In this document: in pieces, positions 37,881-53,585 of the stretch
Layout: every line of letters starts with the position of its first letter
Numbering within the stretch: position 1 is the first letter of the stretch
Assembly (NCBI GenBank): GCA_014686905.1
Contig: GCA_014686905.1_4093.1
Strand: one strand, 5' to 3'
Length of the DNA stretch: 64,000 nt
Source of the DNA: a phage
Made by a program: the position numbers and the translations under genes
Notes under the pieces: generated by a model
Databases searched by the model: none
Told to the model about the DNA's origin: nothing
The model's input: the letters and a program-made list of their open reading frames with translations, nothing else

Positions 37881-37881
37881 T

Positions 37882-38253
37882 ATGAGTTACCGTGAGATAT
37901 TTTCCATTATTTCAATTATTATGTTCAGTACTGGAACACTGGTATGGTTATTATACTTCTTCTGTATTAATCCAGTGTATAATATGTTATGTAATATTAA
38001 ATCAAGTGCCGGATATATCACTTTTATGGTCTTTATGGGATATTATTGTCTAAGCATTTTAGGTGTTGTTTTGGTTGTTATATTTGATGTGGGACCAAAT
38101 AGTGATGGTATGGAAATACATGAATTAATAACCATGTTTGGATGTATGATACCAACAGCACTACTGTTTGTAGCTACTGGTAGTGGATTGATAAAATTAT
38201 ATAATTATTTAAAATCCATTCATAATTCCATTCATAATAAGCGTATGTCATAA
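37882..38253 (+). CDS. small membrane protein (123 aa)
   Basis: TM helices, SD GAGGAA. Confidence 0.5.
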   Translation: MSYREIFSIISIIMFSTGTLVWLLYFFCINPVYNMLCNIKSSAGYITFMVFMGYYCLSILGVVLVVIFDVGPNSDGMEIHELITMFGCMIPTALLFVATGSGLIKLYNYLKSIHNSIHNKRMS

Positions 38254-38294: not shown

Positions 38295-38957
38295 ATGATG
38301 AAAACAAAATTAGGTTTGTTTTATAAAAATTATTTCGTTAAACAGCGTAAATTTATAAAAAAATATTTCTCTGGTGAGAAGTCTAGTCCTATAATTTTTA
38401 AAAGACCAAGTTATAATACTTACTTAGCTGGTGCTAAACAGTCTAAGAAATTTATTACTCTTTTAAATAAAAACAAAATTAAAGCTTCTTATGTTGAAAC
38501 GAGAAGAAACTCATCAATAACTCCTGGTGATTTTATTGAGTACGGATGTTTCAATATTAAGTACAATGATAATACATACTTTATGGATATTGATTGTAAT
38601 ACATCCAATCTTTTTAACATTGTAGTAAATCCATTAAAACAATATAATGTTTATGGTGATTCTATTATCAAATTAATCAAAAACAAAGATAGCTTTGATT
38701 TTGAAATAAATGTTTTAGATGATAATTTTGACGAAGTACCAGTAAACCCTGAAATCTGTGATATTTTAAACAGTTTAAAAGGTAGTACCTACAATATATC
38801 ATCTGATTTAATGTTTCAGTACTCATTAATCCATAAAGATATTGAAAAGTATATTGAATGCTCCAAAATTTTGAATTATCTTTACGATGAATTTAAAAAG
38901 AGTTCTAAAATAACTGCATACACTTTGTACAATATTCCTAAAATGGTGAATCTTTGA
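38295..38957 (+). CDS. hypothetical protein (220 aa)
   Basis: ORF, SD AAGGAG; 3' end converges on the RCC1 array. Confidence 0.55.
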   Translation: MMKTKLGLFYKNYFVKQRKFIKKYFSGEKSSPIIFKRPSYNTYLAGAKQSKKFITLLNKNKIKASYVETRRNSSITPGDFIEYGCFNIKYNDNTYFMDIDCNTSNLFNIVVNPLKQYNVYGDSIIKLIKNKDSFDFEINVLDDNFDEVPVNPEICDILNSLKGSTYNISSDLMFQYSLIHKDIEKYIECSKILNYLYDEFKKSSKITAYTLYNIPKMVNL

Positions 38958-40090
38958 CAAATACAGTACTGGCAACTCCACCGTCTGTAATATATTGTCC
39001 AGTACTGTAAATTTGTATACCATCGGTTAAGTAAGTTCTGTATAAAGTTGCTGTAACATATACGTTATTCATATTCATCTCTATTGGTAGTACACATTTG
39101 GTATAGGCCGACACATCTGTTTGTGTACCTATACCCAATTGACCTGCGTTATCGCCTGTGTTATAACCAGTTGCGTAAACACCTAATGAAGTTATAATAT
39201 GATTAGAAAAATATGAATAACCCACACTGCTTCTTATTATATCACCTGGTGCTTGTGTTGTTTGTCTTAACGAAATATATGTTTGTGATGTAGAACCATT
39301 TGCTAACTGACCAAAGTACTGTCCACCACCATGATATGCAAATAATTTATTAGTACTATTATTACTTGCTATAGCAAAAGCGAAGTAACTTGAGTTTGTT
39401 GTATAATCTTTCACCGTATAGGTATTAGTTATTTGAGAACATAACGTGTACTTTGAATATAACGTCATGTCGGTTGTACCTACGCCTGATATTGCACCAG
39501 TATAATACAATCTCCCATCGGTTCCAATAAATCCTTGCATAAGAAAATTTGCCAGTATTTTGGATGGTGTTACTCCAGTAGGTACTGTTCCTTGTACAAA
39601 TGATGAAAGTGAATCGGTACTTCTACCATTTCCCAGTTGTCCATAACTACCATAACCAGTATTCCATATCGTGTTGTCTGTACATAATACGCTTAATGCA
39701 CCTGCACTAACTGCAATTTGTTTTATTGTTTTTCCTAGGGCTGTTATTCTATCAAACACTATCTTTGCAGAAGCCCACGTAGTAGACTTATCAGTTGATA
39801 AACCCAATGATGCACCATTCCCAGCGTACCACATCGTATTATCTTTCTTTTTTATTAAAGTTGACTCATACCCGCACCCATATATCTTCTACGTTTGTAT
39901 TGCATAAAACCCATTGGGTCTGTGTTATAATATTACCTATACCCATTTGCCCAAACTCTTGAGAGCCTCTACTGTATAGTGTCCCGTCTGACATAAGGGC
40001 AAAAACTGTCGTATCAGATGAAGATATTTTGGTAACAGTAGGGGGTAGGTTCTTTTTTGATGATGTGATAATTCTTCCAAAGGGTAGCAT
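38938..40090 (-). pseudogene. RCC1-like repeat protein, paralog 1, interrupted by frameshift near 39870-39890
   Basis: N-part starts MLPFGRII and stops at 39866; RCC1-like body continues in another frame (track ORF 38938..39834); indel in a C-run. Confidence 0.6.
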
Positions 40091-40162
40091 TGTATCCTCC
40101 AAATGTAAATCGTTATTATATTTAGGACAAAAAAATGCCAGTACAAGGCACTGGCATAAAAT

Positions 40163-41332
40163 CTAAGCAGAAGGCATATCCTTCATTTTAATAAATGAAA
40201 ATTGTGTACCAGTATTTGTGGTTTGATCAGTAAAATATGAATTACTACCAGCCCAGTACAATTCATTATTAACTATACAATATATAACAGAACTCGAACT
40301 CTGTGAATACACACGACTTATATTTGATGGTTCTACTCCAGTACTGAACTGAACCGAACCCAACTGTGAACTTGGTATCACATCAGTTGGTCTACCTAAA
40401 CCATTAACACCAGCCCCACCACCACATGTATATACCCCAGTACTATCAGTTGATATATTAACATAACCATTTCCGGCATTTTCAAATAGTATTTCACTGG
40501 GAACAACACCAAATCCAGTAAGATCTATTTTCCTGAATGTAGTGTAAACAGTAGAACCACCAACACCTCTTCCACCATAATCATTAGAACCAGCCATATA
40601 GATACTATATCCAGAACTTCCTAAACATAATAACTGTACGTTGTCATATAATATTTGCATAGATATAACGTTATCAGGAATACTCAATACCGTAAAAGTA
40701 GTTAAAGAAGAACTTCCAATATTACTACCAACCGATGTTCCACATCTGTAGTACTTACCGCCTTTTATATAATGGAACGATGAACCGCCTAACTTATGTG
40801 CTCCTATTGTACTTACCCCAGTATCTATAAGAATGGGAGATACAACTTTGTTATTAACACCTAACTCAGATCTACTGTTCATACCGAACCCATATAAACG
40901 ACCATCTAACATCAATATTAGTGTACTACCGGAAGTACCCGCTGACGTAAATTCTATATTCTTTATTTGCGACACGTCAATACCTACAAATAATGAAGTT
41001 ACTTCAGTCCAGTTAACATATGAACCACTAGCCCCAAAATATCCACCCATGTATAGACCTGCACAATATAATTTATTATCAACAGTCTTTATTAATGTAC
41101 CGGATACACACGCCCAAAAATCATCAACTTCATAGGGTACATGTACCCAACCACCTAATACATCACTAGCATCCCCTGTACCTAATTTATAGTTCGAACC
41201 AGAACCACGCATGTACATATTCCCTGTACTATAAAGTAATCCGACATGTAATTGACTACCATCCAATTTCTTTATTTCAGGAAGAGTTGGTTTAATATTT
41301 CCGTACTTTAACATTCTTCCAAAAGGTAACAT
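40163..41332 (-). CDS. RCC1-like repeat (beta-propeller) protein, paralog 2
   Basis: MLPFGRMLKYGNI leader; G-x-N-x-x-GxLG repeats (GFGMNSRSELGVNN); SD GGAGAA. Confidence 0.75.
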   Translation of the reverse strand: MLPFGRMLKYGNIKPTLPEIKKLDGSQLHVGLLYSTGNMYMRGSGSNYKLGTGDASDVLGGWVHVPYEVDDFWACVSGTLIKTVDNKLYCAGLYMGGYFGASGSYVNWTEVTSLFVGIDVSQIKNIEFTSAGTSGSTLILMLDGRLYGFGMNSRSELGVNNKVVSPILIDTGVSTIGAHKLGGSSFHYIKGGKYYRCGTSVGSNIGSSSLTTFTVLSIPDNVISMQILYDNVQLLCLGSSGYSIYMAGSNDYGGRGVGGSTVYTTFRKIDLTGFGVVPSEILFENAGNGYVNISTDSTGVYTCGGGAGVNGLGRPTDVIPSSQLGSVQFSTGVEPSNISRVYSQSSSSVIYCIVNNELYWAGSNSYFTDQTTNTGTQFSFIKMKDMPSA

Positions 41333-41342
41333 AATTTTCTCC

Positions 41343-42522
41343 TTAAATTGGTGGCAATTGGTATTCAGTTAAAGTCCATGTACCAACAACTGTCCCTACT
41401 GGAGACATACCAGTGTAGTATAATTTGCCATTCACATATGCAAATAATGCATTGTCATTCGCAGCAACCAACGATGTTGACGGATCATAAACTACAGAAT
41501 TTGGAAATTGTGCTTGGACGAAAATTGAAGCATTATTAGATGAATTGTTACCAAGCTGTCCATAATTATTATACCCTGTTCCAAAAATACGACTTCCATT
41601 TCTATATAATAATCCCCTAGGATTTTGTGAATATGTTTGTATAAATTCAAAATCGGAAACATTAGTTAATTGTAAATAAGTACTTTGTGGCGTTAAAGAT
41701 ATCTTATTAGTATTAGATAGAACACCATTTCCTAATTGTCCGTGAATTTTGTGACCCTACACCATATAGCGGATAAGTATTATCTACATTAAGAACTATA
41801 CCCAACATATTGTTATATGAAATTATATCAACGGGGTACTGGCCTGTAGGAAAACTATACTTTGTCCAACTCGTCAAAGTATCAGTAGCAGAACCAGTTA
41901 ACAATGTACCAGTACTAGTTTTACCACATCTCCATGCTGAATTATCATTTTTAATTATCCAAGTTGGACTATTGAAAAATGAACTAACCTTTTTAACATT
42001 AATATTAACCTGTGTAAATGATGTAAGTGTAGATGAACTACTACCCAACTCATAGGTTGAATTATCACCTATTGCGTAAAGAACACTATCATTTGTTAGT
42101 AAAAACATATTACGAACATTTGGATATATCTCCTTGATATTATCCACATTAAAACCTGAAAAATAAGACGTACAATCAACAAATGTAGTACTTTGAACTG
42201 CACTAGATGTACCAGTCCAAAGGTTCCAACCTGCATAATAAAATTTATTATCATTGGTCTGAACTAAGCTATATGAAGCATTCCTTGTGCACCAAAAATT
42301 TTTCACATTTTGCATTAAGCGAACCCATTTGGTCTGTGTCGTTGTATTTCCAAGACCGAATATACCAGCATTGTTACCGCCAATACCCCACAAATCACCG
42401 TTCTTATACAGAATCATCAATGTGTTGTTGGTAAAAGCCGATGGTGCTTGCATTTTAATTACACTAGATTCATATATAGGTGCAATATTCCCGTACTTTA
42501 ACATTCTTCCAAAAGGTAACAT
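41343..42522 (-). pseudogene. RCC1-like repeat protein, paralog 3, frameshifted near 41740-41760
   Basis: N-part (track 41713..42600, true start MLPFGRML at 42522) ends ...RTIRKWCSI; body continues in shifted frame (HGQLGNG..., GTGYNNYGQLGNN) to stop at 41343. Confidence 0.6.
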
Positions 42523-42603
42523 AATTCCTCCTTTATTCATTATACTATATTTAATACAAATAAGAAAGCCAGCACTCTGTACTGGCTTTTTGATATACAT
42601 ACT

Positions 42604-43791
42604 TCATATACCCAATTTAATTGGCTCATATTGAAATAGTGTAGGATTGGAGTCAGGGTAGTTCACCACTTCTGTTCCTGGATATGCACCATACCCGTTG
42701 AATGCACCTGAACCATATACTATACCATCGGTGCTAATTAATGCAGAATAATTGTTTCCCATACCAACTGACAGTACTGTCATTGTTGATGTACCTTCTG
42801 GTAGGTTTATAACCTGCTCTCTGAAACTATTACCAGAAGCTGTTGGAACACTAAATCCTAATCTGCCATTGCTACTATTAGTAGAGCCAGTTGCATAACG
42901 TGTACCTGTACTCAAATCCTGAATCCAACACGATGGTCCTTGACCCTCTGGATCAGTCCAGTATCTAAAATTAGCACTATCGTATGTAAAGGGAAGAACT
43001 GCTAATCTGTTAGTTCCCTGGGAACCTGAAGTATACGTCAATCCATACAATGAAGTAAGCAAACCACGAACATATAATCCAGTACTCTTGGTGTATAACA
43101 ATGAGCCTCCTGAACCATCTGAATTGATTGAAAGGATATCAGTATCACCTATATTTGTGAATACCTTAATATCAGATGACCCCGATGTTAATCCATAATT
43201 ACCACAGAACCAAGCTGTGTTATCGTTCTTTAACACAACAACTGTTTCATAAGAACAGGTTACCACATCTTTACAGTTAGTATTGATTTGTACAAATTCA
43301 CCAATCTTCCCAGTTAGGGTATTATTACCAAACTGTCCACGGTTATTTGAACCCATAGCATATAATATTCCAGTACTATTCAATGCGTATATTGTACTAG
43401 TTCCTGGTGTTTCACGGCGTGTAATTGCAATCTTTGTAATAGTTCCTAATGTGCTGAAAAATGAACTCACATCAACGAAACTTGTTTGTGAACCTAATCC
43501 AAATTGACTTAAATTCCCCGCCGCCATATATCTTCCATCATTCATTAGACATATAGTATATGCTGGATGACAGTATATCATAGCTACATTTATAAGAACT
43601 AAGCTAGGCACTCCACCAACAATCGAAGTGGTTGGTGTACCAAAACGATACTCATTGTTTGACCCATATGCAAATAACTTACCATCAGTAGTTAAAAATA
43701 AATGCCCTAATCCATAAGTATTAATCTTGCGGATACCAGCGGGTGGTGGTATCTTATTCCCGTACTTTAACATTCTCCCAAAAGGTAACAT
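42604..43791 (-). CDS. RCC1-like repeat protein, paralog 4
   Basis: MLPFGRMLKYGNK leader; AMGSNNRGQFGNN, AYGSNNEYRFG repeats. Confidence 0.75.
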   Translation of the reverse strand: MLPFGRMLKYGNKIPPPAGIRKINTYGLGHLFLTTDGKLFAYGSNNEYRFGTPTTSIVGGVPSLVLINVAMIYCHPAYTICLMNDGRYMAAGNLSQFGLGSQTSFVDVSSFFSTLGTITKIAITRRETPGTSTIYALNSTGILYAMGSNNRGQFGNNTLTGKIGEFVQINTNCKDVVTCSYETVVVLKNDNTAWFCGNYGLTSGSSDIKVFTNIGDTDILSINSDGSGGSLLYTKSTGLYVRGLLTSLYGLTYTSGSQGTNRLAVLPFTYDSANFRYWTDPEGQGPSCWIQDLSTGTRYATGSTNSSNGRLGFSVPTASGNSFREQVINLPEGTSTMTVLSVGMGNNYSALISTDGIVYGSGAFNGYGAYPGTEVVNYPDSNPTLFQYEPIKLGI

Positions 43792-43799
43792 ATTCCCTC

Positions 43800-44975
43800 C
43801 TATTCCGGTAAAATCATTTTCTTCATTTTAACTTGTTGTGTACCTGCACTCTGTTCCTGGAACATAGAACCACTACCACACCAGTAAACCTCATTTGTCC
43901 CCACTAATGCGTATAACACACCGGAACCCCCCTGCTCTGCAAAAGCATTAACATCAAGTGCAGTATCTGAATCCTCAAATAGTACTGGATAGTACGCCGT
44001 TCTAGGTGTCGATGCAGTGATTTCTCTACCAAGAGCAACACCATTACCACATGTATACAATTTACCACCCTGTGTCATCGCAATCATATGAGAATTAATA
44101 CAAGAATTATTCAGTGATGCCGCATCTGGTACAATACCATAAATTGGAGGTGTAGCACTAAATGGACTCATTATTATACTGGTATCTCCATAACCAATAC
44201 CTAACGTATAATCGGTATTCGTCCCAGCACTATACACTCTAATAGTACCATTATATGATGTCAGTACTGAAGTCGCATTTGTAGTACATGCAATCCCTAG
44301 TACGGTTCCTGTGATATCTGTACTTACCGTAAATGTAGATAAAACAGAAGAGCTTGTTCCTAGGTTGTAGCGAGCATTACTCCCACATCTGTAGTACTGA
44401 CCATTTTTCACATAATGTAACGCCGCCGCACGGTCTGTGCCAGCAATTAAAGTAACACCTGTGTCAATCTTAAGTGCAGTTGATTGGATTCCAGAAACGC
44501 CTAATACACCACCACCATTACGACCTATACCATATAAGTCCCCGTTGCTTAACAAAATTAATATAGCACCATTGGAAATTGTAGTCTCAGTATAAGCTAT
44601 GTTTTGTATAGTACTAAGTGCAGGTATTGAGGATAAATTAGATGTAATATTAGTCCATCCAGGTACGCTCGCTGCAACTACACCAACATAACCCAATTGT
44701 CCAGCTAAGTATAATTCACCACTTGTAGTAAGTATAATAGTCGCGTAAGTTAAGCACCAAACATCAGCAACGCTATATTGGCACTTAACCCAACCATTCT
44801 GTACGAATCCAGTACTGTCATTTCCTAACTTATACTCACCACCATTCCCACGTAGATATAAATTTCCATTATCGAATAACATCCCAACGTGACTAATGGA
44901 AGTACTAATTTTCTTCACACCAGCACGTTTGGGTATAGTATTCCCGTACTTTACCATTCTTCCAAAAGGTAACAT
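43800..44975 (-). CDS. RCC1-like repeat protein, paralog 5
   Basis: MLPFGRMVKYGNT leader; YGIGRNGGGVLGVSG repeats. Confidence 0.75.
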   Translation of the reverse strand: MLPFGRMVKYGNTIPKRAGVKKISTSISHVGMLFDNGNLYLRGNGGEYKLGNDSTGFVQNGWVKCQYSVADVWCLTYATIILTTSGELYLAGQLGYVGVVAASVPGWTNITSNLSSIPALSTIQNIAYTETTISNGAILILLSNGDLYGIGRNGGGVLGVSGIQSTALKIDTGVTLIAGTDRAAALHYVKNGQYYRCGSNARYNLGTSSSVLSTFTVSTDITGTVLGIACTTNATSVLTSYNGTIRVYSAGTNTDYTLGIGYGDTSIIMSPFSATPPIYGIVPDAASLNNSCINSHMIAMTQGGKLYTCGNGVALGREITASTPRTAYYPVLFEDSDTALDVNAFAEQGGSGVLYALVGTNEVYWCGSGSMFQEQSAGTQQVKMKKMILPE

Positions 44976-45045
44976 ACTTCCCTCCTTTATTCATTATACT
45001 ATATTTAATCAAAAAGAAAAGCCAGTACTCTGTACTGGCATAATT

Positions 45046-46188
45046 TCAATAAACATCCCAAGGTAATGGTGTCTTCCTAAATCCATACCTGGTTGTGGTT
45101 GCACCATCACCAGCAATGTATCTACCGATGCCACATTGGTATAACTCCGTACTACTACATATAGCACCACCAATAGTACCACTACTCCACTGAATTATAT
45201 TAGAATATGTTATTGGCAAATCACTACATTTAGTATATACACCAACGGTAGCAGCACCACTAATACCACCAAACATACTTCGGTTAGCACCAGTATAATA
45301 TATACCATCTGGACTCATAAATGCAGAGGTGTAAGTTGTACTACAATCCACTGGACTTCTTATAGTATTAAGATCGCCTGGGTATGTTCTAGCAGCATAT
45401 ACGTAAACATTACCATCAGTAGTAATACCATTGCCCAACTGACCACTGTTCTGACCACCACACGTAACTAACGATGCAGAACCAGAAACAATTGCAGTAG
45501 CATTATACGAAGTACCCATTGCAATAGAAGCACCAGACAATAGTTTTGGGGTAACGATAGCTGTTGTATTACCCTGGCCTAATTCACCATTTGTGTTTCG
45601 TCCCCATGCGTATATAGAAGTCGTATCCAATCGACATAGTACTGAACCATAACTAAACGTATATCGCATGTCATTTACAGCAGAAGGCAAATTAACCTTA
45701 GTTGCAACACTAATAACACCACCAGTAACACCACTGTTTGCGTTCATGTTACGACCATATGCATATAAAGAACCATCTGAAGTTTTAATATGCATCATAC
45801 CATCTGTGCAATATAATGCATCGATGCTATCCACCGCAACCGGACCCATACTGGCAGTTATATCGGTCCACCCAAGAGTAGTAGTACTAGAAATTAAGTT
45901 ATTTCCTGCGTAAAGGATTCTATTATTATTAGTAACTACCACTGTATATCTAGCAGTAACTCCAATTAATCGAACATCAGTATATATCTTAGACCACGCA
46001 CCTAGTGAATTGGTATTTGCATCCAAAAAGCCTAACTGCCCATCTGTATTGTATCCAATACCCCATGCATCACCTGCACTGTCCAATAACACTTCATGTG
46101 AAAAGCCAATCTTAAAATCTTTTATTGTAGGAACTACTGGAACTGGTGCAATATTCCCGTACTTAACCATTCTTGCAAAAGGTAACAT
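45046..46188 (-). CDS. RCC1-like repeat protein, paralog 6
   Basis: MLPFARMVKYGNI leader; WGIGYNTDGQLGF, YAWGRNTNGELGQGN, CGGQNSGQLGNG. Confidence 0.8.
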   Translation of the reverse strand: MLPFARMVKYGNIAPVPVVPTIKDFKIGFSHEVLLDSAGDAWGIGYNTDGQLGFLDANTNSLGAWSKIYTDVRLIGVTARYTVVVTNNNRILYAGNNLISSTTTLGWTDITASMGPVAVDSIDALYCTDGMMHIKTSDGSLYAYGRNMNANSGVTGGVISVATKVNLPSAVNDMRYTFSYGSVLCRLDTTSIYAWGRNTNGELGQGNTTAIVTPKLLSGASIAMGTSYNATAIVSGSASLVTCGGQNSGQLGNGITTDGNVYVYAARTYPGDLNTIRSPVDCSTTYTSAFMSPDGIYYTGANRSMFGGISGAATVGVYTKCSDLPITYSNIIQWSSGTIGGAICSSTELYQCGIGRYIAGDGATTTRYGFRKTPLPWDVY

Positions 46189-46194
46189 AATTCC

Positions 46195-46253
46195 CCTCCT
46201 TATTCATTATACTATATTTAATACAAATAAGAAAGCCAGTATCAAGTACTGGC
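46195..46253 (-). promoter_or_regulatory. representative module: upstream terminator hairpin + -35-less promoter + SD
   Basis: On - strand: GCCAGTACTTGATACTGGC hairpin, T-rich, TTAAATATAGTATAATGAATAAGGAGG, then ATG; repeated before most paralogs. Confidence 0.5.
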
Positions 46254-46260
46254 CTATATT

Positions 46261-46929
46261 TTAGACTGAATTGTTAGGATAATATCTCCCACGTCCCCAT
46301 ATTATTCGCACAGCACCACCACTACCAGCACCACCATTATATGAACCATCGTATCTACCGCCAATACCATTAGCACCTTGAACAATGATACCAGTACCAC
46401 CACCCGTACCAATGAACGAGGTATTATAGAATGCACCACCACCACCGCCGCCGCCAGCACCATTTTCACCAGTGATTGCATCTCCGTTACCACCTTTACC
46501 AGTGTAGCCACCAGCACCACCACCAATGACTGCACCACCACTTACACCAGCGTTGCCCCCATTACCACCACCATCATTAATAGCGTTAGCAGCTTTCCCA
46601 CCTAGTCCACCAACCCTATATTCACCAGTGAAGCTAACACATAGTTTTTCAGTTCCACGATATAAACCGTTTTCAACTGCTGTAGTAGTGTTGGGATGTG
46701 TAAGAGAAACACTTAAGTACTCACCACTAGTAACCGGAATATTATTACGCCACGATAAGCCGCCACCAGCACCACGTTGACCACCCGGCGAAATAACACA
46801 TACTGATATTTCGGTAACGCCAGCAGGAACTGTAAATTGTGTTGTTCCTATTGTCGTGATTAATTGTTCACCATCTGGCTTATATTCAATTTTATTCCCG
46901 TACTTTACCATTCTTCCAAAAGGTAACAT
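46261..46929 (-). CDS. Gly-rich protein sharing the MLPFGRM leader (paralog 7, divergent body)
   Basis: MLPFGRMVKYGNK leader, then Gly-rich low-complexity body (GGNGGNAGVSGGAVIGGGAGG...). Confidence 0.7.
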   Translation of the reverse strand: MLPFGRMVKYGNKIEYKPDGEQLITTIGTTQFTVPAGVTEISVCVISPGGQRGAGGGLSWRNNIPVTSGEYLSVSLTHPNTTTAVENGLYRGTEKLCVSFTGEYRVGGLGGKAANAINDGGGNGGNAGVSGGAVIGGGAGGYTGKGGNGDAITGENGAGGGGGGGAFYNTSFIGTGGGTGIIVQGANGIGGRYDGSYNGGAGSGGAVRIIWGRGRYYPNNSV

Positions 46930-47000
46930 ACTTCCTCCTTTATTCATTATACTATATTTAATACAAATAAGAAAGCCAGTACTTTGTACTGGCGAAATTA

Positions 47001-48191
47001 TTACAATTGTCTAGGTGTATCCAGAACATATCTATTTGTACTAGGTCCACCATCATCATACGTTCCGGTTGAATATATATTTTTCATATCAGCAGTTAGA
47101 AAAGTACGATACGAACCGCGATATATTTTTATTTTATCATACATAGAATATGATATTTCTGCTGGCATTGGACATATAGTAAATCTACCAATAGTAACAT
47201 TAGAACCAACACCTAATGTACCAGCATAACCACTCGCATTTAAACCAGTTGCATATACACCTGTACTCGTAACTAGTATACTAGATTGTGCTGCATATCC
47301 AGTATGGATTGAATAATAAGTTCCTGATGGTAATGTAGTACTATTATTCCCTAATACTGCTAGTGCTGTACTATTCGTAGTGTTATTACCCCATGCCCCA
47401 TTATTAGCGTTACCACCTACTAGGAACTGACGTGCTCCTGTACTTGGATTCTCTACTAAAGCACTGACAGCACCAATTGAACAACCAGTATATTGTAATG
47501 TTTTTGTATATGTGGTACTTGGCTTATACAAAGTATATTCATTAAATGGTGTCCATGTGGTACTAGTACTTATGCCAGATGTACTACCACCAATATATAA
47601 ATTATTTTGTGTATCAAAAAACATTACACAGTAATTTGTTGACTGTATTTGTGCAATATCTACATCTGGTGTTACCGCTTTAACAAATGAACCATCTGAT
47701 ATTTGATAAGTAGTTCCTGTACCATCTGCGAATTGTCTAGCACTATTCCACCCTGTACTCCATATTGTATTATTATCCATTAAGAAAGTAAACCACGTAG
47801 TACCTGCATACATCTGTTTAATTGAAGTACTTGAACTTTGTGTGTACAAATTTTCAATATATTGGTTATAACTTAAAAATGATGTAGTACTAGTTTCTAA
47901 ACCAATATGACTACCATATCCACAATAAAAATAATTTAAGTCCTTATCTTGAACTAACAAAGTTCCTTGTGTCATCCAGCAATCTTTGACATTTTCTCTA
48001 ATTAATGTCCACGACCTTACTGCATTATTATTTCCTCTACCAAACTTCCCAAAACTATTACTGCCTCGTGCGTATAGTTGACCATCAGTATAAAGTACAA
48101 CAACATCAGTATCAGTTGGTATTATTTTCTTAATTTGTAGTGGTACAGGCACAATATTCCCATAATTCATCATTCTTGCAAAAGGTAACAT
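47001..48191 (-). CDS. RCC1-like repeat protein, paralog 8
   Basis: MLPFARMMNYGNI leader; YARGSNSFGKFGRGNNN. Confidence 0.75.
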   Translation of the reverse strand: MLPFARMMNYGNIVPVPLQIKKIIPTDTDVVVLYTDGQLYARGSNSFGKFGRGNNNAVRSWTLIRENVKDCWMTQGTLLVQDKDLNYFYCGYGSHIGLETSTTSFLSYNQYIENLYTQSSSTSIKQMYAGTTWFTFLMDNNTIWSTGWNSARQFADGTGTTYQISDGSFVKAVTPDVDIAQIQSTNYCVMFFDTQNNLYIGGSTSGISTSTTWTPFNEYTLYKPSTTYTKTLQYTGCSIGAVSALVENPSTGARQFLVGGNANNGAWGNNTTNSTALAVLGNNSTTLPSGTYYSIHTGYAAQSSILVTSTGVYATGLNASGYAGTLGVGSNVTIGRFTICPMPAEISYSMYDKIKIYRGSYRTFLTADMKNIYSTGTYDDGGPSTNRYVLDTPRQL

Positions 48192-48244
48192 AATTCCCTC
48201 CTTTATTCATTATACTATATTTAATACAAATAAGAATGCCAGTA

Positions 48245-49432
48245 TCAAGTACTGGCATTGATTGTTGGAAGTGGGAACTCTTTCATGACAGATGAACTAC
48301 TTGCTGAAATATTATCAGGGGATTTCCCCGCGTAGTATAATTTATTATTAATGTACATATACAACGTTGCATCGTTCCCAGCTACAAGTGATTCACTTTT
48401 CTTAAAATTAACACCATCAGGTAAAATTGCTTCAACAAATGAACCAGAATTAATTGTACTGTTATTTGCCAATTGACCATTGTTATTATAACCAGTACTA
48501 TAAATTTTACCAGAGCTATAATATACCAGGCCACGGGATGAGATGTTTTCAATTCGAATGAATTCACTATCATCTGGAACGGTTTTCGATAACGTTGGCG
48601 TTAATTTATAACCCCCTGCTGTAGTATTATTACCCAACTGACCATCAGCTTGATAGCCCATTGTATACATAGGACATGATTCTGGTGTACCTTTAGTTAT
48701 AATACCAATATAACTCGCACTACAAAAAACGTCTATAGCTTCGGTAACAGGTGTGCCCTTATATTGAACCCAAGGAAATATATATGTGTTTTGAACTCCA
48801 TTTCCCAACGTTCCATGAGATGTTGTCCCAGTACGCCATATTGTATTATCTAGTTTAATAATCCAGTTAGAGGGTGTGATGGATGAACAGAATTTTTTAA
48901 CATTATCGACTAAAAATGTAAATTTATTAAAATATGATGCAGTGTTTAAACCAAACTTTGAATTTTTATTATCACCTAACAAATATAAACTATTATCAGT
49001 ACCTAAAATCAAAGCATAATCAAGACCTACATATATCTCTTTGATTTTTGAAATACCAAATTGTGTAAAATAACTCGTACATTCAGTGAATGTTGTTACA
49101 GTATTTGTTGTATTATTACCTAGCCATTTATCTAAACCACTATAAAAGAATCTATCATCATTTGTTCGTATTAGACAAAACCCATTCCCTGTACTGCACC
49201 AAAAATCTTTAACATTGCTATATATTTTTGTCCATTCAGTAACCTGTGTAGTATTCCCTAACCCAAAAATTCCACCATTCTGAAGACCCATAGCCCACAC
49301 TGATCCATTTACATCCAGCAGCATTGTGCATGTAAATGAATAACCAACTGCTGGGGTGACTAATTTAGTAAAATTGGGAACATATGGAATGACTTTATTC
49401 CCGTACTTAACCATTCTTGTAAAAGGTAACAT
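48245..49432 (-). CDS. RCC1-like repeat protein, paralog 9
   Basis: MLPFTRMVKYGNK leader (track ORF extends upstream through promoter); MGYQADGQLGNN, YSTGYNNNGQLANN. Confidence 0.75.
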   Translation of the reverse strand: MLPFTRMVKYGNKVIPYVPNFTKLVTPAVGYSFTCTMLLDVNGSVWAMGLQNGGIFGLGNTTQVTEWTKIYSNVKDFWCSTGNGFCLIRTNDDRFFYSGLDKWLGNNTTNTVTTFTECTSYFTQFGISKIKEIYVGLDYALILGTDNSLYLLGDNKNSKFGLNTASYFNKFTFLVDNVKKFCSSITPSNWIIKLDNTIWRTGTTSHGTLGNGVQNTYIFPWVQYKGTPVTEAIDVFCSASYIGIITKGTPESCPMYTMGYQADGQLGNNTTAGGYKLTPTLSKTVPDDSEFIRIENISSRGLVYYSSGKIYSTGYNNNGQLANNSTINSGSFVEAILPDGVNFKKSESLVAGNDATLYMYINNKLYYAGKSPDNISASSSSVMKEFPLPTINAST

Positions 49433-49502
49433 AATTCCTCCTTTATTCATTATACTATATTTAATCAAAAAATAAAAACCAGTATCAAGTACTGGCTTTA
49501 AT

Positions 49503-50651
49503 TCATTGTATAAATGACATATCAACTTCGGTATATCTTGTAGTGTACTGCCCAGAACTTCCACCCATTACTAGATTGGAAAAACCAGTATAAAATAACT
49601 TCCCTTCATCTGTGAGAATCAAACTACCGATGTTATTCAGTACTAAACTGTAAGAACTATTAAAATTTTCATAAGACTTGGTATAATAGAACTGATTTGT
49701 AAGATTACCAACACCCAATTGCCCACCAGTGTTAACCCCAGATGCAAATATTGTAGTCCCAAATCTGAGAATATGTGAAGCCATATTACCAACACAACAG
49801 TATATATTCTGTACATCCGAATTCAATAAAGTTGGTGTTGTGTATTGCTTAAGTGTTGTGCCTGTGCCGAATTCATTACCATATGATACTCCATATTGTG
49901 TACCACAAGCGTACAATTTATTATCATCTTTAATAAAAAATGTACTCTGATAACTTACATCGACATCTATAACATTAGTCTGTATTCTAACAACACCAGT
50001 ACTAGCAGTTTGATTGCCTGTCCCTAACTGATAGTAAGTGTTAATACCACAACCCCATAATGTATTATCTTCTTTTAGGTATATGTTACCAACAGCTTTT
50101 TTTACCGATGATATGGCTTCAATCTTAACAAAGGCGTTAAATGAATTTGTATTTGTGCCATTACCAAAAGATGATCTGGTTGATGTGCTGTTTGTTCCGC
50201 AGCAATATAAAGTACCATCAGTTGTTATCAAATTCACTTTAAGATCACTGTAACTACTCATGTATTTTATATCAGAAACATTAATACCACTGGATGTTAT
50301 CCATGAAGTACAATCTGTCCACGTGTTATAATATGCACCTGAACCAGAAAACGCACTCGGACTTCCAGTTATAAACACTTTTCCAGTACCGTCTTCTTCA
50401 TATAATTGACAACCACTACTGTTATTTTCCAAAAGGACTCTTTTAACATTAGTCGCACTAAGAATAAATTTACTCGACGCTACACCAGTTCCAGTACCCT
50501 GACTGACTGCCGCTGATGCATACAAATTTTTCGTGTATGTATCATGAAAATACATAGCACTACCGCCGGAATATATTTTAAAACGTGTACTAGGATCAGG
50601 CGGGTTAGGTGCAATATTTCCGTACTTAATCATTCTTCCAAAAGGTAACAT
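49503..50651 (-). CDS. RCC1-like repeat protein, paralog 10
   Basis: MLPFGRMIKYGNI leader; WGCGINTYYQLGTGNQ, FASGVNTGGQLGVGN. Confidence 0.8.
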   Translation of the reverse strand: MLPFGRMIKYGNIAPNPPDPSTRFKIYSGGSAMYFHDTYTKNLYASAAVSQGTGTGVASSKFILSATNVKRVLLENNSSGCQLYEEDGTGKVFITGSPSAFSGSGAYYNTWTDCTSWITSSGINVSDIKYMSSYSDLKVNLITTDGTLYCCGTNSTSTRSSFGNGTNTNSFNAFVKIEAISSVKKAVGNIYLKEDNTLWGCGINTYYQLGTGNQTASTGVVRIQTNVIDVDVSYQSTFFIKDDNKLYACGTQYGVSYGNEFGTGTTLKQYTTPTLLNSDVQNIYCCVGNMASHILRFGTTIFASGVNTGGQLGVGNLTNQFYYTKSYENFNSSYSLVLNNIGSLILTDEGKLFYTGFSNLVMGGSSGQYTTRYTEVDMSFIQ

Positions 50652-50722
50652 ATTTCCCTCCTTTATTCATTATAGTATATTTAATACAAATAAGAATGCC
50701 AGTATCAAGCACTGGCATTATG

Positions 50723-51832
50723 TTATTTTGGTAAATCAATTTTAGTAAAGACTGCAACATCCTCGATTGCACCTGGAATGGCGTAATACGATCCAGTACT
50801 ATACACATCTCCATTTTTGGTTAATATCGATGTCAAACCATCACTAAAAAGAACATCTCTAATCTCACTAACTTCAACGGGTAATTGTAAATTGGTAGCA
50901 CTATATATAGCACCAGTTTGAGAATTGTTTAATCCCAAACCACGGTTCGCCCCAACACCCTTCTGATATGTACTAGTAATTACCATTTGTGTAGCAGTAT
51001 TTAATGCAGGTGAATTCGTCATAAACAACGGAGAACTATTAGGCAAAGTACTTACAGGAACTGCACGGAATGTAGTCGTACCTGAACTAAGAAAGTTTGG
51101 AGTTTGACCACATACGAAATATGATGTACCATTATAGTAATTTAATGCATTACCACCAATGGCTGCATCGATTACACCAGAACTACGCAATCCCCAAGTG
51201 TTAATTTGTGTTTGGTTCCCCGTACCATGCTGCCCACTACTATTCCATCCAGAACTATATAGCTTATTATCTAATGTAAGATACATACTATCATTCGCAT
51301 TGGTCATTACTTTACGAACGTTCGTAGCACATTGAGTTAATGTATAAATTGATGATGAACCAATACCCAAAGAACCACGATATCCATTATCTCCTGCACC
51401 ATAGAGTACTGAATTAGTGCTAAGTACAAATATTAAACCATTTGTACATACAATATTAGCAATTTCACTTACTGGTATAGCATTGGTAAACCAATTAGTC
51501 CTTTCAACTAATACAGTACTGTAAGAAGTAGTCGTAGAAGATGAGAACCAGTACGTTTGACCTGATGTCCATATAGTATTATCATTTTTAATAATAACAA
51601 GTGTACGATCACCCACGAAAAAATTAGAAACATCTGCACTTACTAATATCCATGAAGATACCGTGTTGGTATTACCATTTCCAGATTCACCACCTTGATT
51701 TCTACCTATGTAATATAAATCATGTGAATCAGTCAATAAGAATTGACCTTGTGTAGAAGCACCAACTTTAATTATATTTTTAGGACCAGGTACAATATTT
51801 CCGTACTTAACCATTCTTCCAAAAGGTAACAT
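50723..51832 (-). CDS. RCC1-like repeat protein, paralog 11
   Basis: MLPFGRMVKYGNI leader; LYSSGWNSSGQHGTGNQ, YGAGDNGYRGSLGIG. Confidence 0.75.
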   Translation of the reverse strand: MLPFGRMVKYGNIVPGPKNIIKVGASTQGQFLLTDSHDLYYIGRNQGGESGNGNTNTVSSWILVSADVSNFFVGDRTLVIIKNDNTIWTSGQTYWFSSSTTTSYSTVLVERTNWFTNAIPVSEIANIVCTNGLIFVLSTNSVLYGAGDNGYRGSLGIGSSSIYTLTQCATNVRKVMTNANDSMYLTLDNKLYSSGWNSSGQHGTGNQTQINTWGLRSSGVIDAAIGGNALNYYNGTSYFVCGQTPNFLSSGTTTFRAVPVSTLPNSSPLFMTNSPALNTATQMVITSTYQKGVGANRGLGLNNSQTGAIYSATNLQLPVEVSEIRDVLFSDGLTSILTKNGDVYSTGSYYAIPGAIEDVAVFTKIDLPK

Positions 51833-51905
51833 AAATCCCTCCTTATTCATTATACTATATTTAATACAAAAAAGAAAAGCCAGCATCAAGTACTGGCATA
51901 TCAAA

Positions 51906-53054
51906 TCACTGCAAAAATGACATATCGACTTCGGTATAATTAAGAACGTTCTGTCCAGCAATACCTCCCATTACTACAATTGAAGCCCCACAATAATATA
52001 ACTTCGAAGTGTCAGTAAGTATAAGTGAACCAGATGGGGTGCGTACCAAATTACACGAAGTATTAAACGAAGTATATGAAGGGGTATAAGAGTACTGATT
52101 AATATTATTACCAACACCTAATTGACCAGACGAGTTGCTTCCAGATGCATAAAGTACTTCATCACCTTTAACTATATGTGACGCCATGTTACCAACACAA
52201 GTATATAAACTATAAACTCCTGAACTCAATAATGTTGGAGTTTTGTATTGTATATCTGTAGATGAAGAAGTACCACCTGTGCCAAATTCGTTCCCGTATT
52301 GTGCACCGAACTGTTTACCACATGCGTACAAATTATTATCTGATTTAATAAAAAATGTACTCTGATAACTTACATCAAAATCTATAACATCCGAAGCAAT
52401 CATCGTCACCCCAGTAATAGAAGTTTGATTACCTGTACCTAACTGATAGTAATAGTTAAAACCACAACCCCATAAAGTATTATCTTCTTTTAGGTATATG
52501 TTACCAACTGCCTTTTTAACCGAAGTTATAGTATCTACCCTTTTGAATGTGTTAAAAGAATTAATGTTTGTACCATCACCAAATGATGATAGGTTAGAGT
52601 TATTGTTAGCTCCACAACAATACAATGTACCATCGTTTGTTATCAAATTTACCTTCATATCATTAAAACTACTCATGTATTTTATATCAGAAACATTAAT
52701 ACCACCTGATGTTATCCACGTAGTACATTCCGTCCACAAAGTTTTTCTATCAGTTACACCAGTGAATGCCTTCGTGTTACCAGTGATAAAAACTTTTCCA
52801 GTACCTTTCTCTTCATACAATTGACAATCACTACTGTTATTTTCCAATAGAACTCGTTTAACATTCTCCGCACTAAGAATAAATTTACTCGACGAAACAC
52901 CTGTTCCAGTACCCCAATTCGTCGCAGAAGATGCATACAACTTATCAGTATAAGTATCATGAAGATACATGGAATCACTGGAATATATTTTAAAACGTCC
53001 ATCATCACCAGGGGCAATATTCCCGTACTTAATCATTCTAACAAAAGGTAACAT
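51906..53054 (-). CDS. RCC1-like repeat protein, paralog 12 (close duplicate of paralog 10)
   Basis: MLPFVRMIKYGNI leader; long blocks near-identical to 49503..50651. Confidence 0.8.
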   Translation of the reverse strand: MLPFVRMIKYGNIAPGDDGRFKIYSSDSMYLHDTYTDKLYASSATNWGTGTGVSSSKFILSAENVKRVLLENNSSDCQLYEEKGTGKVFITGNTKAFTGVTDRKTLWTECTTWITSGGINVSDIKYMSSFNDMKVNLITNDGTLYCCGANNNSNLSSFGDGTNINSFNTFKRVDTITSVKKAVGNIYLKEDNTLWGCGFNYYYQLGTGNQTSITGVTMIASDVIDFDVSYQSTFFIKSDNNLYACGKQFGAQYGNEFGTGGTSSSTDIQYKTPTLLSSGVYSLYTCVGNMASHIVKGDEVLYASGSNSSGQLGVGNNINQYSYTPSYTSFNTSCNLVRTPSGSLILTDTSKLYYCGASIVVMGGIAGQNVLNYTEVDMSFLQ

Positions 53055-53102
53055 ATTTCCCTCCTTATTCATTATATCATATTTACCCCATAAAGAAAAC
53101 CC

Positions 53103-53131: not shown

Positions 53132-53156
53132 AGAAGGAATATAAGGAGAACTACAC

Positions 53157-53584: not shown

Positions 53585-53585
53585 T

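Follow-up and report, generated by a model that had tools for sequence, protein, structure and literature searches.

A tandem gene array of a jumbo coliphage whose virion-associated products share a short N-terminal leader

Layout, cassettes and exchange of the array genes

The stretch of DNA analysed here (64,000 nucleotides; "the window") belongs to a jumbo coliphage of the 121Q/PBECO4 type (Asteriusvirus), a giant phage of E. coli. It contains a contiguous array of twelve leader-bearing genes on the minus strand (38938..53054, 14.1 kb), in agreement with a first-pass annotation that had placed a ~14-kb array there. All twelve had been described as RCC1-like genes of ~380-395 aa. This holds for nine intact RCC1-like propellers (369-396 aa), but two further RCC1 genes are interrupted by a frame change and one gene is glycine-rich with no RCC1 match, so that products of 222, 269 and 74 aa depart from the described length. 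The genes are:

51906..53054, minus strand: leader gene 1, first of the array; RCC1-like propeller, 382 aa, leader MLPFVRMIKYGN
50723..51832, minus strand: leader gene 2; RCC1-like propeller, 369 aa
49503..50651, minus strand: leader gene 3; RCC1-like propeller, 382 aa, 68%-identical paralog of gene 1
48245..49432, minus strand: leader gene 4; RCC1-like propeller, 395 aa
47001..48191, minus strand: leader gene 5; RCC1-like propeller, 396 aa, leader MLPFARMMNYGN
46261..46929, minus strand: leader gene 6; glycine-rich, 222 aa, not RCC1, with the shared leader and cassette
45046..46188, minus strand: leader gene 7; RCC1-like propeller, 380 aa, modelled with AlphaFold2
43800..44975, minus strand: leader gene 8; RCC1-like propeller, 391 aa
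42604..43791, minus strand: leader gene 9; RCC1-like propeller, 395 aa, SD only, coupled to gene 8
41343..42522, minus strand: leader gene 10; RCC1-like, one +1 frame change
40163..41332, minus strand: leader gene 11; RCC1-like propeller, 389 aa, directly after gene 10, without cassette
38938..40090, minus strand: leader gene 12; RCC1-like, decayed leader MLPFGRIITSS, one +1 frame change

The divergent region 53055-53156 adjoins leader gene 1.

Both frame changes lie at CGG codons:

41740..41742, minus strand: frame-change codon of gene 10, UCA CGG A; the +1 reading is GGA CAA UUA GGA (GQLG)
39872..39874, minus strand: frame-change codon of gene 12, GUG CGG G; the +1 reading is GGG UAU GAG

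The zero-frame product of gene 10 has 269 aa and ends at a stop codon at 41713-41715, while its +1 frame runs for 132 codons (41741 to 41343). The shift site is identical in a WPEC3 allele of 80% identity, the frame downstream of it has a dN/dS of 0.21, and phAPEC6 gp007, a 269-aa product, has been detected in virions. In gene 12 a zero-frame product of 74 aa is continued by a 298-aa ORF (38938..39834), a split also seen in PBECO4 (gp296).

Inside the array there are nine intergenic terminator-like hairpins (19 such sites in total, against 6.0 +/- 2.3 expected), and the box TTAAATATAGTATAATGAATAAAGGAGG occurs in 8 copies at <=3 mismatches where none is expected. No enrichment of sigma-70 -35/-10 promoters was found. 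The box is promoter-like and may be a late-type promoter, judged solely by its likeness to ATAAATA, a motif described in CBB and GAP32. Nearly every gene had been credited with its own hairpin, -35-less promoter and SD; most do have them, except the genes at 43791 and 41332, which start right after the preceding gene with no hairpin/promoter cassette. The cassettes are:

51837..51897, minus strand: terminator hairpin GCCAGTACTTGATGCTGGC and T-run, then TTAAATATAGTATAATGAATAAGGAGGG and ATG
50657..50719, minus strand: hairpin, late-type -35-less promoter-like box, SD
49437..49499, minus strand: intergenic cassette
48197..48259, minus strand: intergenic cassette
46934..46993, minus strand: intergenic cassette upstream of the glycine-rich gene
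46194..46255, minus strand: intergenic cassette
44981..45039, minus strand: intergenic cassette
42527..42589, minus strand: intergenic cassette
40091..40157, minus strand: diverged cassette upstream of gene 12; hairpin ATGCCAGTGCCTTGTACTGGCAT and T-run, then AAATATAATAACG...GGAGGA

Comparable arrays with other gene content are found in 37 independently sequenced phage records, and the array is therefore not an assembly artefact of a single gene. The paralogs are diverged, as previously stated (23-39% identity), but the pair taken for a recent duplication (genes starting at 53054 and 50651) shares only 68% protein identity. The dN/dS calculation that had been proposed gave 0.14-0.29 at dS 0.2-0.8. 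Cassette presence and absence form a mosaic across JP4, phAPEC6, 121Q, PBECO4 and WPEC3, and the array flanks are ~96-98% identical over the compared portions of the loci. Gene 1 is 93-98% identical to its JP4, phAPEC6, PBECO4 and WPEC3 orthologs, and gene 2 is 100% identical to an unannotated ORF of phAPEC6. Among the five phages, gene 3 has a close ortholog only in 121Q (99%); gene 4 has orthologs in JP4 and WPEC3 (98-99%) and PBECO4 (84%) and is missing from phAPEC6 and 121Q. Among the phages compared, gene 9 has a close ortholog only in JP4 (99%). The array genes thus appear, from sequence comparison, to be both functional and exchanged.

Folds of the bodies and conservation of the leader

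The RCC1 bodies of the array match the Pfam families RCC1, RCC1_2 and WD40_RLD (E 1e-15 to 1e-28). The structure prediction suggested for 45046..46188 yielded a beta-propeller (AlphaFold2 pLDDT 90.7, pTM 0.87), for which the best Foldseek matches were UVR8 (TM 0.77), RPGR-RLD, HERC2-RLD and RCC1 (TM 0.65-0.77 overall). These results bear out the propeller assignment, and the intact RCC1-like bodies are predicted to be seven-bladed. They resemble RLD propellers (RCC1, UVR8, RPGR, HERC2 and the bacterial BLIP-II) in fold and repeat motif, but identity is 13-20%, a context of Ran or chromatin is missing, and only the jumbo-phage clade has the putative docking peptide. Leader gene 6 gave no match in the Pfam search, to RCC1 or otherwise; it falls in phrog_4474, and its distant homologs bear PF21722 Gly_rich_2. 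Its AlphaFold2 model is less confident (pLDDT 79, leader <50), and its only fold matches, the Bxb1 tail tip and the Pam3 fiber, are weak.

All proteins of the array are united by a 12-residue N-terminal leader with the consensus M-[LI]-P-F-x-R-[MI]-x-x-Y-[GA]-N. Searched with a degenerate DNA pattern, the window gives 11 leader matches, all at minus-strand ORF starts, with 0 expected (100 shuffles); the twelfth gene, starting at 40090, carries the decayed variant. The common start MLPFGRM(L/V/I/M)KYGN(I/K/T) proposed earlier is accurate for these 11 in outline, although position 5 may be G, A, T or V and one leader has MMNYGN. When 20 sequences are aligned, 13 columns are invariant, of which 6 fall within leader residues 1-12, and the bodies share only 18-26% identity with the first sequence, so that the leader is the most conserved segment of these proteins. 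A scan of IMG/VR with the degenerate pattern returned 16 loci on eight contigs; seven are jumbo-phage contigs of 348-378 kb, among them 121Q, GAP32, CBB and Serratia BF, and the eighth measures 109 kb. The ORFs behind these matches encode RCC1, Kelch, RCC1+Kelch (667 aa), Laminin_G_3, Gly-rich and further bodies without assignment; at least five kinds of body follow the leader (RCC1, Kelch, RCC1+Kelch, LamG lectin-like, Gly-rich). Homologous Gly-rich and LamG-like bodies also occur in Seunavirus phages and in metagenomic phages; there the alignment begins only at about residue 14-22 and the N-terminus is a different peptide, M[IL]E[LM]L..G.K, which suggests that the leader is a lineage-specific tag.

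This distribution bears on the name that the genes already have. GenBank and three papers call them "RCC1/DNA condensation proteins", and the papers on phAPEC6, CBB and fEgEco12 discuss the RCC1 array. The earlier statement that no described phage system matches the locus is therefore right only for the shared leader, of which we found no mention in the literature searched on these phages; the leader is the new result, the RCC1 array and its virion association having been known before. On the view put forward in the phAPEC6 paper and implied by the names in GenBank, the packaged 350-kb DNA would be bound and ordered by the RCC1-like proteins. Such a role is unsupported and in our view extremely improbable: the proteins have no basic character (pI 5.3-8.3, K+R only ~6%, acidic residues about equal), and CBB, which has no RCC1 genes at all, has Kelch, LamG and Gly-rich bodies at the same leader and locus. 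The extreme turnover between isolates would also be unexpected for a core packaging component. In cells, moreover, the chromatin role of RCC1 requires Ran and nucleosomes, neither of which bacteria or phages have.

Might the leader instead be a structural part of the fold, for example a "velcro" strand closing the propeller? RCC1-type propellers are often closed by N- plus C-terminal strands. However, Gly-rich, LamG and Kelch bodies bear the same peptide, and it is absent from cellular homologs of RCC1. Residues 1-13 are unstructured (pLDDT <50) in the RCC1 model and also in the Gly-rich one, and in leader gene 7 they are followed by a proline-rich linker (residues 14-20), the first strand starting at residue 22. 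The models thus place the leader outside the fold, and we give the closing-strand idea hardly any credence.

Alternatively, the peptide could be a functionless by-product of events at the DNA level, in which homogenisation of the terminator-promoter-SD unit by gene conversion or recombination drags along the first ~36 coding nt. Inside the window, cassette and leader codons are indeed nearly identical DNA, and mosaic exchange of cassettes is evident. We nevertheless regard this as very unlikely. The leader is found without the cassette in the genes at 43791 and 41332 and in the CBB array genes other than CBB_552, and it is kept in orthologs of as little as 41% identity and on unrelated bodies across several genera. 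Its amino acids are invariant despite synonymous codon variation among 98 distinct leader sequences (P3 CCT/CCA/CCG/CCC, R6 AGA/AGG/CGT/CGA, Y10 TAC/TAT, G11 GGG/GGA/GGT), a pattern pointing to selection at the protein level. Moreover, the presence of the leader predicts incorporation into virions.

Virion association and retention of the leader

Published MS of phAPEC6 virions detected 8 of 11 annotated RCC1 proteins. This is a strong enrichment of leader/RCC1 proteins over the others (54/540, p=2e-6), three being undetected. In CBB, nine of 11 leader proteins were detected (CBB_144, 247, 536, 537, 548, 549, 551, 552 and 553) against 46/543 others (p=2e-8), with 550 and 554 undetected by virion MS. 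All six MS-detected CBB proteins that are missing from GAP32 bear the leader, and GAP32 gp001 is also a virion protein. CBB_144, 247 and 536/537 are lone leader genes in non-structural neighbourhoods, yet their products are virion proteins; CBB gp144 (leader MLPFSPLIVYGN) is the homolog of leader gene 6. Since most tag-bearing proteins are found in particles by proteomics of two related phages, the leader looks like a universal loading "plug". The enrichment in phAPEC6 and CBB supports, beyond the window itself, the earlier suggestion that bodies of different kinds are docked on the virion by one common N-terminal peptide; it is a correlation, from which we infer that the leader causes incorporation. 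Peptides in phAPEC6 were few (1-5 per protein), leaving copy number and stoichiometry uncertain, and the MS was done on whole virions, in which the outside and inside of the particle are not separated.

The published CBB virion peptide lists include the tryptic peptide LFEYANVIIPPNYK (CBB_536 residues 7-20), YANVIVEYATK (CBB_548 residues 10-20) and LLQYGNK (CBB_553 residues 7-13). As these are leader peptides, the leader is retained, uncleaved, in mature CBB virions.

Retention matters for a further explanation, which we consider unlikely but deserving of serious weight, in which these are internal head proteins. The leader would then be a capsid-targeting signal that, like the T4 CTS (IPI-III, Alt), directs them to the inner body or scaffolding core while the prohead is being assembled. 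They would be packaged together with the DNA and might also be ejected into the cell, where they would bind or inhibit proteins of host defence. BLIP-II, an RCC1-like propeller that is a tight protein inhibitor, offers a precedent for the latter. The T4 CTS/internal-protein locus (IPI/IPII/IPIII, Alt) is likewise a hypervariable, isolate-variable tandem array of virion-associated products with the logic of a portable tag, ~10-12 residues on unrelated proteins. The array phages fall within the broader lineage with T4-like heads, and head genes of T4 type, a prohead protease among them, occur in their clade; virions of 121Q and phAPEC6 contain an inner body without assigned proteins; and a low copy number would be compatible. 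However, the T4 CTS has a gp21 cleavage site at its end and is cut off there by gp21, whereas the leader is present in mature-virion peptides, has no sequence similarity to the CTS and lacks a conserved [LI]-x-E protease site (position 9 is K/D/E/N/Q/V/T, with nothing conserved past residue 12). The bodies are 24-44-kDa binding scaffolds of lectin-like or propeller type with tail-fibre-annotated precedents, rather than small charged proteins, and passage of rigid 40-kDa propellers through the tail tube would presumably require unfolding. Between the external binding modules and packaged effectors of the first-pass annotation the evidence cannot decide, although leader retention and the lectin/propeller bodies favour a docking peptide over a cleaved signal.

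A proposed docking tag for swappable binding proteins

The explanation we favour, and hold to be somewhat better than an even bet, is that the array forms a locus of cassettes for accessory virion proteins, in which an uncleaved docking leader loads recombining binding bodies, most probably on the outside. It builds on the fold, on the conservation of the leader as protein and its presence on unrelated folds, and on virion association, leader retention and mosaic gene content, as found here or in published data. Each protein would have the 12-residue peptide at its N-terminus, then a short linker rich in proline, and finally an autonomous scaffold for binding that is rich in beta structure. 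In the window phage this scaffold is either a glycine-rich domain or a seven-bladed propeller of RCC1 type; related jumbo phages can also use Kelch propellers, RCC1+Kelch pairs and jelly rolls like those of LamG/ConA. The leader would act as a lineage-specific, uncleaved docking tag for a common acceptor site on the particle, so that any leader-bearing body would be incorporated and every virion would hold a low-copy mixture of paralogs. Most genes would form their own transcription unit, with terminator hairpin, -35-less late-type promoter-like box, strong SD and leader codons. This repeated ~110-nt unit may also serve as a recombination substrate, by which cassettes would be swapped between co-infecting relatives and the repertoire would come to differ between isolates.

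Such a docking arrangement has partial parallels. Tailspike and tail-fibre cassettes (CBA120, G7C, K64-1/RaK2) also combine a conserved N-terminal anchor with a horizontally swapped C-terminal binding module, and multi-spike phages carry several alternative binding modules per virion; RCC1 propellers also occur in tail-fibre-annotated proteins. Known spike and fibre anchors, however, are folded, ~100 residues or more, and trimeric, whereas the array has a 12-residue peptide and linker on presumably monomeric globular bodies. The PeSL (promoter-early stem-loops), which Arbiol, Comeau and Krisch reportedly described in 2010 as mobile regulatory cassettes of T4-type phages, are similar repeated intergenic units of stem-loop and promoter beside variable genes, with modular shuffling, but they have early sigma-70 promoters and stop before the coding sequence, while the array box is -35-less and late-like and its repeat runs into the translated leader. 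Decoration proteins (T4 Hoc; Ig-like and LamG-like domains) are likewise non-essential, variable surface-type domains on a finished scaffold, and 121Q and phAPEC6 have hexamer-centre and fibre densities without gene assignment; the array differs in using one short tag for many folds, with a dozen paralogs per genome.

We infer an acceptor site, an external location and ligand binding. The bodies would most probably be external, on capsid or tail appendages, and may bind host-surface or environmental ligands. Virions of 121Q, phAPEC6 and CBB have fibres on capsid and sheath, and a protein at each hexamer centre, without gene assignment. An array propeller as the ~119-nm hairs was ruled out, being a 40-kDa globular body on an 8-residue linker. 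An external location is probable and an external role plausible: BFVD contains RCC1 propellers within proteins that have a T7 tail-fibre N-domain and a tail-fibre annotation, and gene 40 of PVP-SE1, a "tail protein" with this fold, adjoins a tail-fibre gene.

The array of RCC1-like genes

Twelve consecutive genes occupy the minus strand of 38938..53054, numbered here from 53054 downwards. By megablast, 38900-53100 matches 37 phage records, all from jumbo phages of Escherichia or Salmonella that belong to the 121Q/PBECO4/phAPEC6/JP4 type (Asteriusvirus), in which the matched genes are named "regulator of chromosome condensation" or "putative DNA condensation protein". The leader that opens these proteins was found in a six-frame scan (M[LIVM]PF..M..YGN) at 11 ORF starts and none elsewhere in the 64 kb, and a degenerate DNA pattern for it matched 11 times, as against 0 in 100 shuffles; in gene 12 (start 40090) it has decayed to MLPFGRIITSS. 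The first-pass annotation took all twelve genes to be RCC1-like. This holds for nine intact genes; gene 6 (46261..46929) is glycine-rich without an RCC1 match, and genes 10 (start 42522) and 12 are each broken by one frame change.

The nine intact genes encode 369-396 aa, and all nine have Pfam matches to RCC1, RCC1_2 and WD40_RLD, with PF00415 or PF13540 above curated cut-offs; PF25390 reached E-values of 1e-15 to 1e-28, yet stayed under its 150-bit cut-off. An AlphaFold2 model of gene 7 (45046..46188), a check the first pass had proposed, was built on 20 paralogs and orthologs and gave a seven-bladed RCC1-like propeller (pLDDT 90.7, pTM 0.87), with UVR8, RPGR-RLD, HERC2-RLD and RCC1 as best PDB matches in Foldseek (TM 0.65-0.77, E 1e-15 to 1e-20). 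Since Pfam, model and PDB fold matches agree, the original call of beta-propeller bodies is correct. The paralogs are also as highly diverged as first described, at 23-39% identity. This divergence, and the recurrence of the array with different content in 37 phage records, rule out an assembly artefact of a single gene. The supposed recent duplicate pair, 53054/50651, is only 68% identical and is therefore not a recent duplication.

The proposed dN/dS comparison gave gene-wide values of 0.14-0.29, with dS of 0.2-0.8 between alleles, and judged by these substitution patterns the array genes are functional. Their alleles have diverged far beyond the flanking DNA: the flanks are ~96-98% identical where covered by fetched loci. 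No single stretch of a record matches more than 47% of the array, and identity there is 84-98%. Gene content is mosaic as well. Among JP4, phAPEC6, 121Q, PBECO4 and WPEC3, a close ortholog of gene 43791 occurs only in JP4 and one of gene 50651 only in 121Q, phAPEC6 and 121Q both lack gene 49432, and gene 12 has a counterpart only in PBECO4; WPEC3 carries at least 15 RCC1 genes and PBECO4 carries 11. The fEgEco12 paper likewise notes that, when phages of one species are compared, "chromosome condensation regulators" rank with the proteins that diverge most.

Gene 6 encodes a leader followed by a glycine-rich body (222 aa, phrog_4474). Neither its product nor its close relatives have a Pfam match, PF21722 (Gly_rich_2) appears on more distant homologs recovered along with it, and a profile of the family found nothing among PDB sequences. 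Its model has weak fold matches to the Bxb1 tail tip, the Pam3 fiber and the ALK GRD (E about 0.01, TM 0.27-0.30), which are suggestive at most. The protein has 244-245 aa in 121Q, JP4 and phAPEC6 (P0017 / L005 6880), so that a glycine-rich stretch of 22-23 residues is missing from the present one. A metagenomic variant (P0018) lacks exactly the leader and begins with the SD-encoded MNKGG. Just upstream of CBB_554, near the terminal-repeat boundary, the sequence at 6141-6230 of the fetched CBB locus (L021) encodes ...GGAVRIIYGDDRSFPNTLTNNQ*, the C-terminus of another protein of this family, unannotated in the stretch shown.

The leader and the virion

The leader is kept, as M-[LI]-P-F-x-R-[MIV]-x-x-Y-[GA]-N, in orthologs down to 41% identity and in distant paralogs, and is absent from the cellular RCC1 homologs compared; residues 1-12 hold 6 of the 13 invariant alignment columns. 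A scan of IMG/VR with the degenerate leader pattern returned 16 loci on eight contigs, seven of them jumbo-phage contigs of 348-378 kb (including 121Q, GAP32, CBB and Serratia BF) and the eighth of 109 kb. The 121Q matches lie in two loci only, and all are RCC1-like or Gly-rich ORFs. Across the translated loci the leader precedes RCC1 propellers, Kelch propellers, Gly-rich proteins, a 667-aa RCC1+Kelch protein, Laminin_G_3 (ConA-like) jelly rolls and several unassigned bodies of ~200 aa. Codon usage indicates that it is the amino acids of the leader that are conserved: across its 98 distinct sequences P3 is written CCT/CCA/CCG/CCC, R6 AGA/AGG/CGT/CGA, Y10 TAC/TAT and G11 GGG/GGA/GGT. This synonymous variation, and a CBB array that keeps the leader without the hairpin/promoter unit, rule out conservation of the DNA alone. 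In the RCC1 and Gly-rich AlphaFold2 models residues 1-13 have a pLDDT below 50 and are followed by a proline-rich linker and then the first strand; the models thus place the leader outside these folds. The same unstructured residues, and the occurrence of the leader on unrelated bodies, rule out a role as velcro strand of the propeller.

The first pass had suggested that the shared peptide docks these proteins to the virion, and published proteomes agree with a shared peptide on virion proteins. Table 1 of the phAPEC6 paper lists 62 virion proteins, among them gp003, 005, 006, 007, 009, 010, 549 and 551; this amounts to 8 of the 11 annotated RCC1 proteins versus 54 of 540 others (p=2e-6). RCC1 genes are reported to be absent from CBB. 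Syntenic to the array, CBB_548-554 form a seven-gene leader array with LamG, Kelch and unassigned bodies, and single leader genes also lie at CBB_144, 247 and 536/537. In the CBB virion proteome 9 of 11 leader proteins were detected, versus 46 of 543 other ORFs (p=2e-8), and all six of the proteins found there by MS that are lacking in GAP32 bear the leader. GAP32 gp001, an RCC1 protein with the leader, is a virion protein too. In phAPEC6 and CBB, the leader predicts virion incorporation, as measured by MS of whole virions that did not distinguish inside from outside.

We note that phAPEC6 has 15 leader ORFs, not 11. Its record (L001, MK817115) leaves three full-length RCC1 leader genes unannotated and includes the Gly-rich gene only as the 100-aa fragment gp004; the ORF starts concerned in L001 are 16468, 20097, 22528 and 15206. 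The published MS search could therefore not detect these four proteins.

The annotated name would make the array products DNA-condensing proteins with the function of eukaryotic RCC1. This is very improbable. The name derives from the eukaryotic Ran/nucleosome context, the proteins are not basic (their pI is 5.3-8.3, and K+R and D+E are similarly frequent, each at ~6%), and relatives that lack RCC1 put Kelch and LamG proteins into the same locus. To our knowledge there is no Ran in a phage system.

Three tryptic peptides in the CBB supplement cover leader residues, so the leader stays on the mature virion protein:

CBB_536, residues 7-20: LFEYANVIIPPNYK
CBB_548, residues 10-20: YANVIVEYATK
CBB_553, residues 7-13: LLQYGNK

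This retention bears on a second alternative, in which the proteins are internal head proteins following the logic of the T4 CTS and internal proteins. As in T4, a short conserved N-terminal tag stands on unrelated proteins encoded in a variable tandem locus, and an inner body is present in 121Q and phAPEC6. However, the tag of T4 terminates in a prohead-protease site ([LI]-x-E) and is lost from the mature virion, whereas leader peptides are present in the CBB virions and the 98 distinct leader sequences have no conserved Glu or protease site in or after the leader. We consider an internal location unlikely. The best-supported model is instead that an uncleaved docking peptide on a flexible linker would load a range of exchangeable binding scaffolds onto one shared site of the particle. 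An external location of the bodies is favoured because they are lectin-like or propeller scaffolds, because some proteins annotated as tail fibres contain RCC1 propellers (and the 'tail protein' gene 40 of PVP-SE1 adjoins a tail-fibre gene), because the leader is retained in the virion, and because these phages bear unassigned surface fibres and hexamer-centre proteins. Tail fibres and tailspikes have an N-terminal anchor domain that is folded, and a shaft that is trimeric and either fibrous or beta-helical. The array proteins differ from them: a 12-residue unstructured leader and a propeller from residue ~22 are predicted, and neither coiled coil nor shaft is present.

Outside the jumbo clade the same bodies carry another N-terminus. 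Homologs of the Gly-rich body begin there with M[IL]E[LM]L..SG.K rather than MLPF, as in PVP-SE1 gp018 (L003 4998-5840; MFEMMLATSETKK). With LamG-like homologs of the CBB_553 type, the alignment starts at residue 1 in jumbo relatives, and not before residue 14-22 in phages of 143-212 kb. The homolog in 4MG, gp182 (L028 2450-3100), is annotated as a virion structural protein and opens with MEEMLLVGGGKSP. The pattern M[IL]E[LM]L..G.K, defined on Gly-rich and LamG-like bodies (proteins P0021-P0063), may represent a second leader class with an equivalent job in Seunavirus and metagenomic phages. Two body types with one leader in the jumbo clade and another in Seunavirus are the pattern expected if each tag fits an acceptor specific to its lineage. 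That these kinds of body have a further leader class in rV5-like phages suggests that modular virions are built in a general way that has been overlooked.

The RCC1 array, its annotation and its virion association have been published. In the literature on jumbo-phage RCC1/Kelch proteins and Asteriusvirus we found name-based comments only, as we did on looking for the leader as text in the CBB supplements, and the Sharanji paper does not mention the array genes. As far as our searches show, the shared leader is undescribed, and so are its occurrence across unrelated folds and genera, its value as a predictor of virion proteins, the fact that the virion retains it, and the parallel leader class in Seunavirus. 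We would place the leader with short N-terminal virion-targeting or anchoring tags.

Regulatory units and frame changes

The first pass had given nearly every gene its own hairpin, promoter and SD. A near-identical unit does precede eight array genes, and a diverged copy precedes gene 12; genes 43791 and 41332 have none and directly follow the upstream gene. The unit is laid out as follows:

Terminator hairpin GCCAGTACTTGATACTGGC with T-run, then TATTAAATATAGTATAATGAATAAAGGAGG, then five or six bases, then ATG

Terminator-like sites number 19 in the window versus 6.0 +/- 2.3 expected, nine of them being the array's intergenic hairpins, and the promoter-SD box occurs in 8 copies versus 0 expected, all confined to the array. 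Sigma-70 sites are not enriched in the window (82 versus 70.8 +/- 9.1), and the unit has no -35 element; its box resembles the ATAAATA late motif reported for CBB and GAP32, and by this likeness the array genes may be expressed late. The in-frame extension "MNKGG" in ORF lists is the SD read as codons, and the real start is MLPF. The array is like PeSL cassettes in that repeated intergenic stem-loop and promoter units flank shuffled genes of mosaic content, and unlike them in lacking the early sigma-70 promoter with a -35 box. The whole terminator-promoter-SD-leader unit would serve expression and recombination alike.

The two interrupted genes change frame at the same codon:

41740-41742, minus strand: gene 10 frame change at in-frame CGG (UCA CGG A)
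39872-39874, minus strand: gene 12 frame change at in-frame CGG (GUG CGG G)

In both genes a +1 shift restores a Gly codon and the RCC1 motif; a predicted trans-frame junction in an interrupted RCC1 gene reads ...GVGSQNS-GQLGNGVLSNTNK. The WPEC3 allele of gene 10 (80% identical; locus L023, gene listed as starting at 1594) shifts at the same codon, GUG CGG A. Downstream of the shift the +1 frame of gene 10 runs for 132 codons, with no start codon for about 90, at a dN/dS of 0.21, compared with 0.25 in the 260 codons upstream. Among the nine intact genes (3,479 codons) CGG is found 0 times, and in 67 other ORFs of the window it is used less than any other Arg codon (8 of 9,819 codons). The zero-frame product of gene 10 (269 aa) was detected in phAPEC6 virions as gp007. 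Reading-frame evidence thus suggests that genes 10 and 12 may undergo programmed +1 frameshifting rather than being dead pseudogenes, and with these conserved frame changes at CGG such frameshifting could be tested simply in a phage structural-accessory gene.

With this in mind, one may combine these elements in a joint reading, which we offer tentatively, as plausible though short of probable. According to it, the leader would be a portable, uncleaved virion-loading tag of 12 residues, used across a clade of ~350-kb enterobacterial jumbo phages, its place being taken in Seunavirus myophages by a different tag. Beta-rich binding domains of any kind would, once they gained the tag, dock to one common acceptor, perhaps a hexamer-centre protein or capsid/sheath 'hairs', and phages would have a display system resembling that of cohesin and dockerin. 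Within one burst, particles would be decorated with a stochastic mixture of binders (RCC1, Kelch, LamG and Gly-rich) taken from a library that undergoes recombination. For two members, the proportions of truncated and full-length propeller would in addition depend on a +1 frameshift at a hungry CGG codon. Were the leader sufficient for incorporation, it would tell what the misnamed "DNA condensation" genes of therapy-candidate coliphages are, account for their being the most variable genes between isolates of one species, and identify accessory virion proteins of "hairy" jumbo phages. It would also offer a 12-residue handle by which binding domains or cargo of choice could be put on large phages, with essential structural genes left untouched.

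Surroundings of the array

Directly before the array, 36834-38253 (plus strand) encodes tandem paralogs of ~105-140 aa that resemble multi-pass membrane proteins, several of which end in K/R-rich tails (KRKRG); relatives have more of them further upstream (L022 5573-8353), and the membrane-protein paralogs CBB_543-547 adjoin the CBB leader array in the syntenic position. A 220-aa ORF on the plus strand (38295-38957, phrog_34359) converges on the last array gene with a 20-nt overlap, and is kept at the same position in JP4, phAPEC6 and PBECO4. On the other side, 53157-57380 (plus strand) holds about 20 back-to-back ORFs of 59-81 aa and one of 223 aa (54610-55281). Throughout 54001-58000 GC skew is below zero (-0.13 to -0.17), and AT skew, at +0.11 to +0.23, is strongly positive, despite plus-strand ORFs, whereas elsewhere in the window the sign of the skew follows the coding strand. 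The sole tRNA gene in the window is tRNA-Thr (anticodon TGT) at 1434-1507 on the plus strand.
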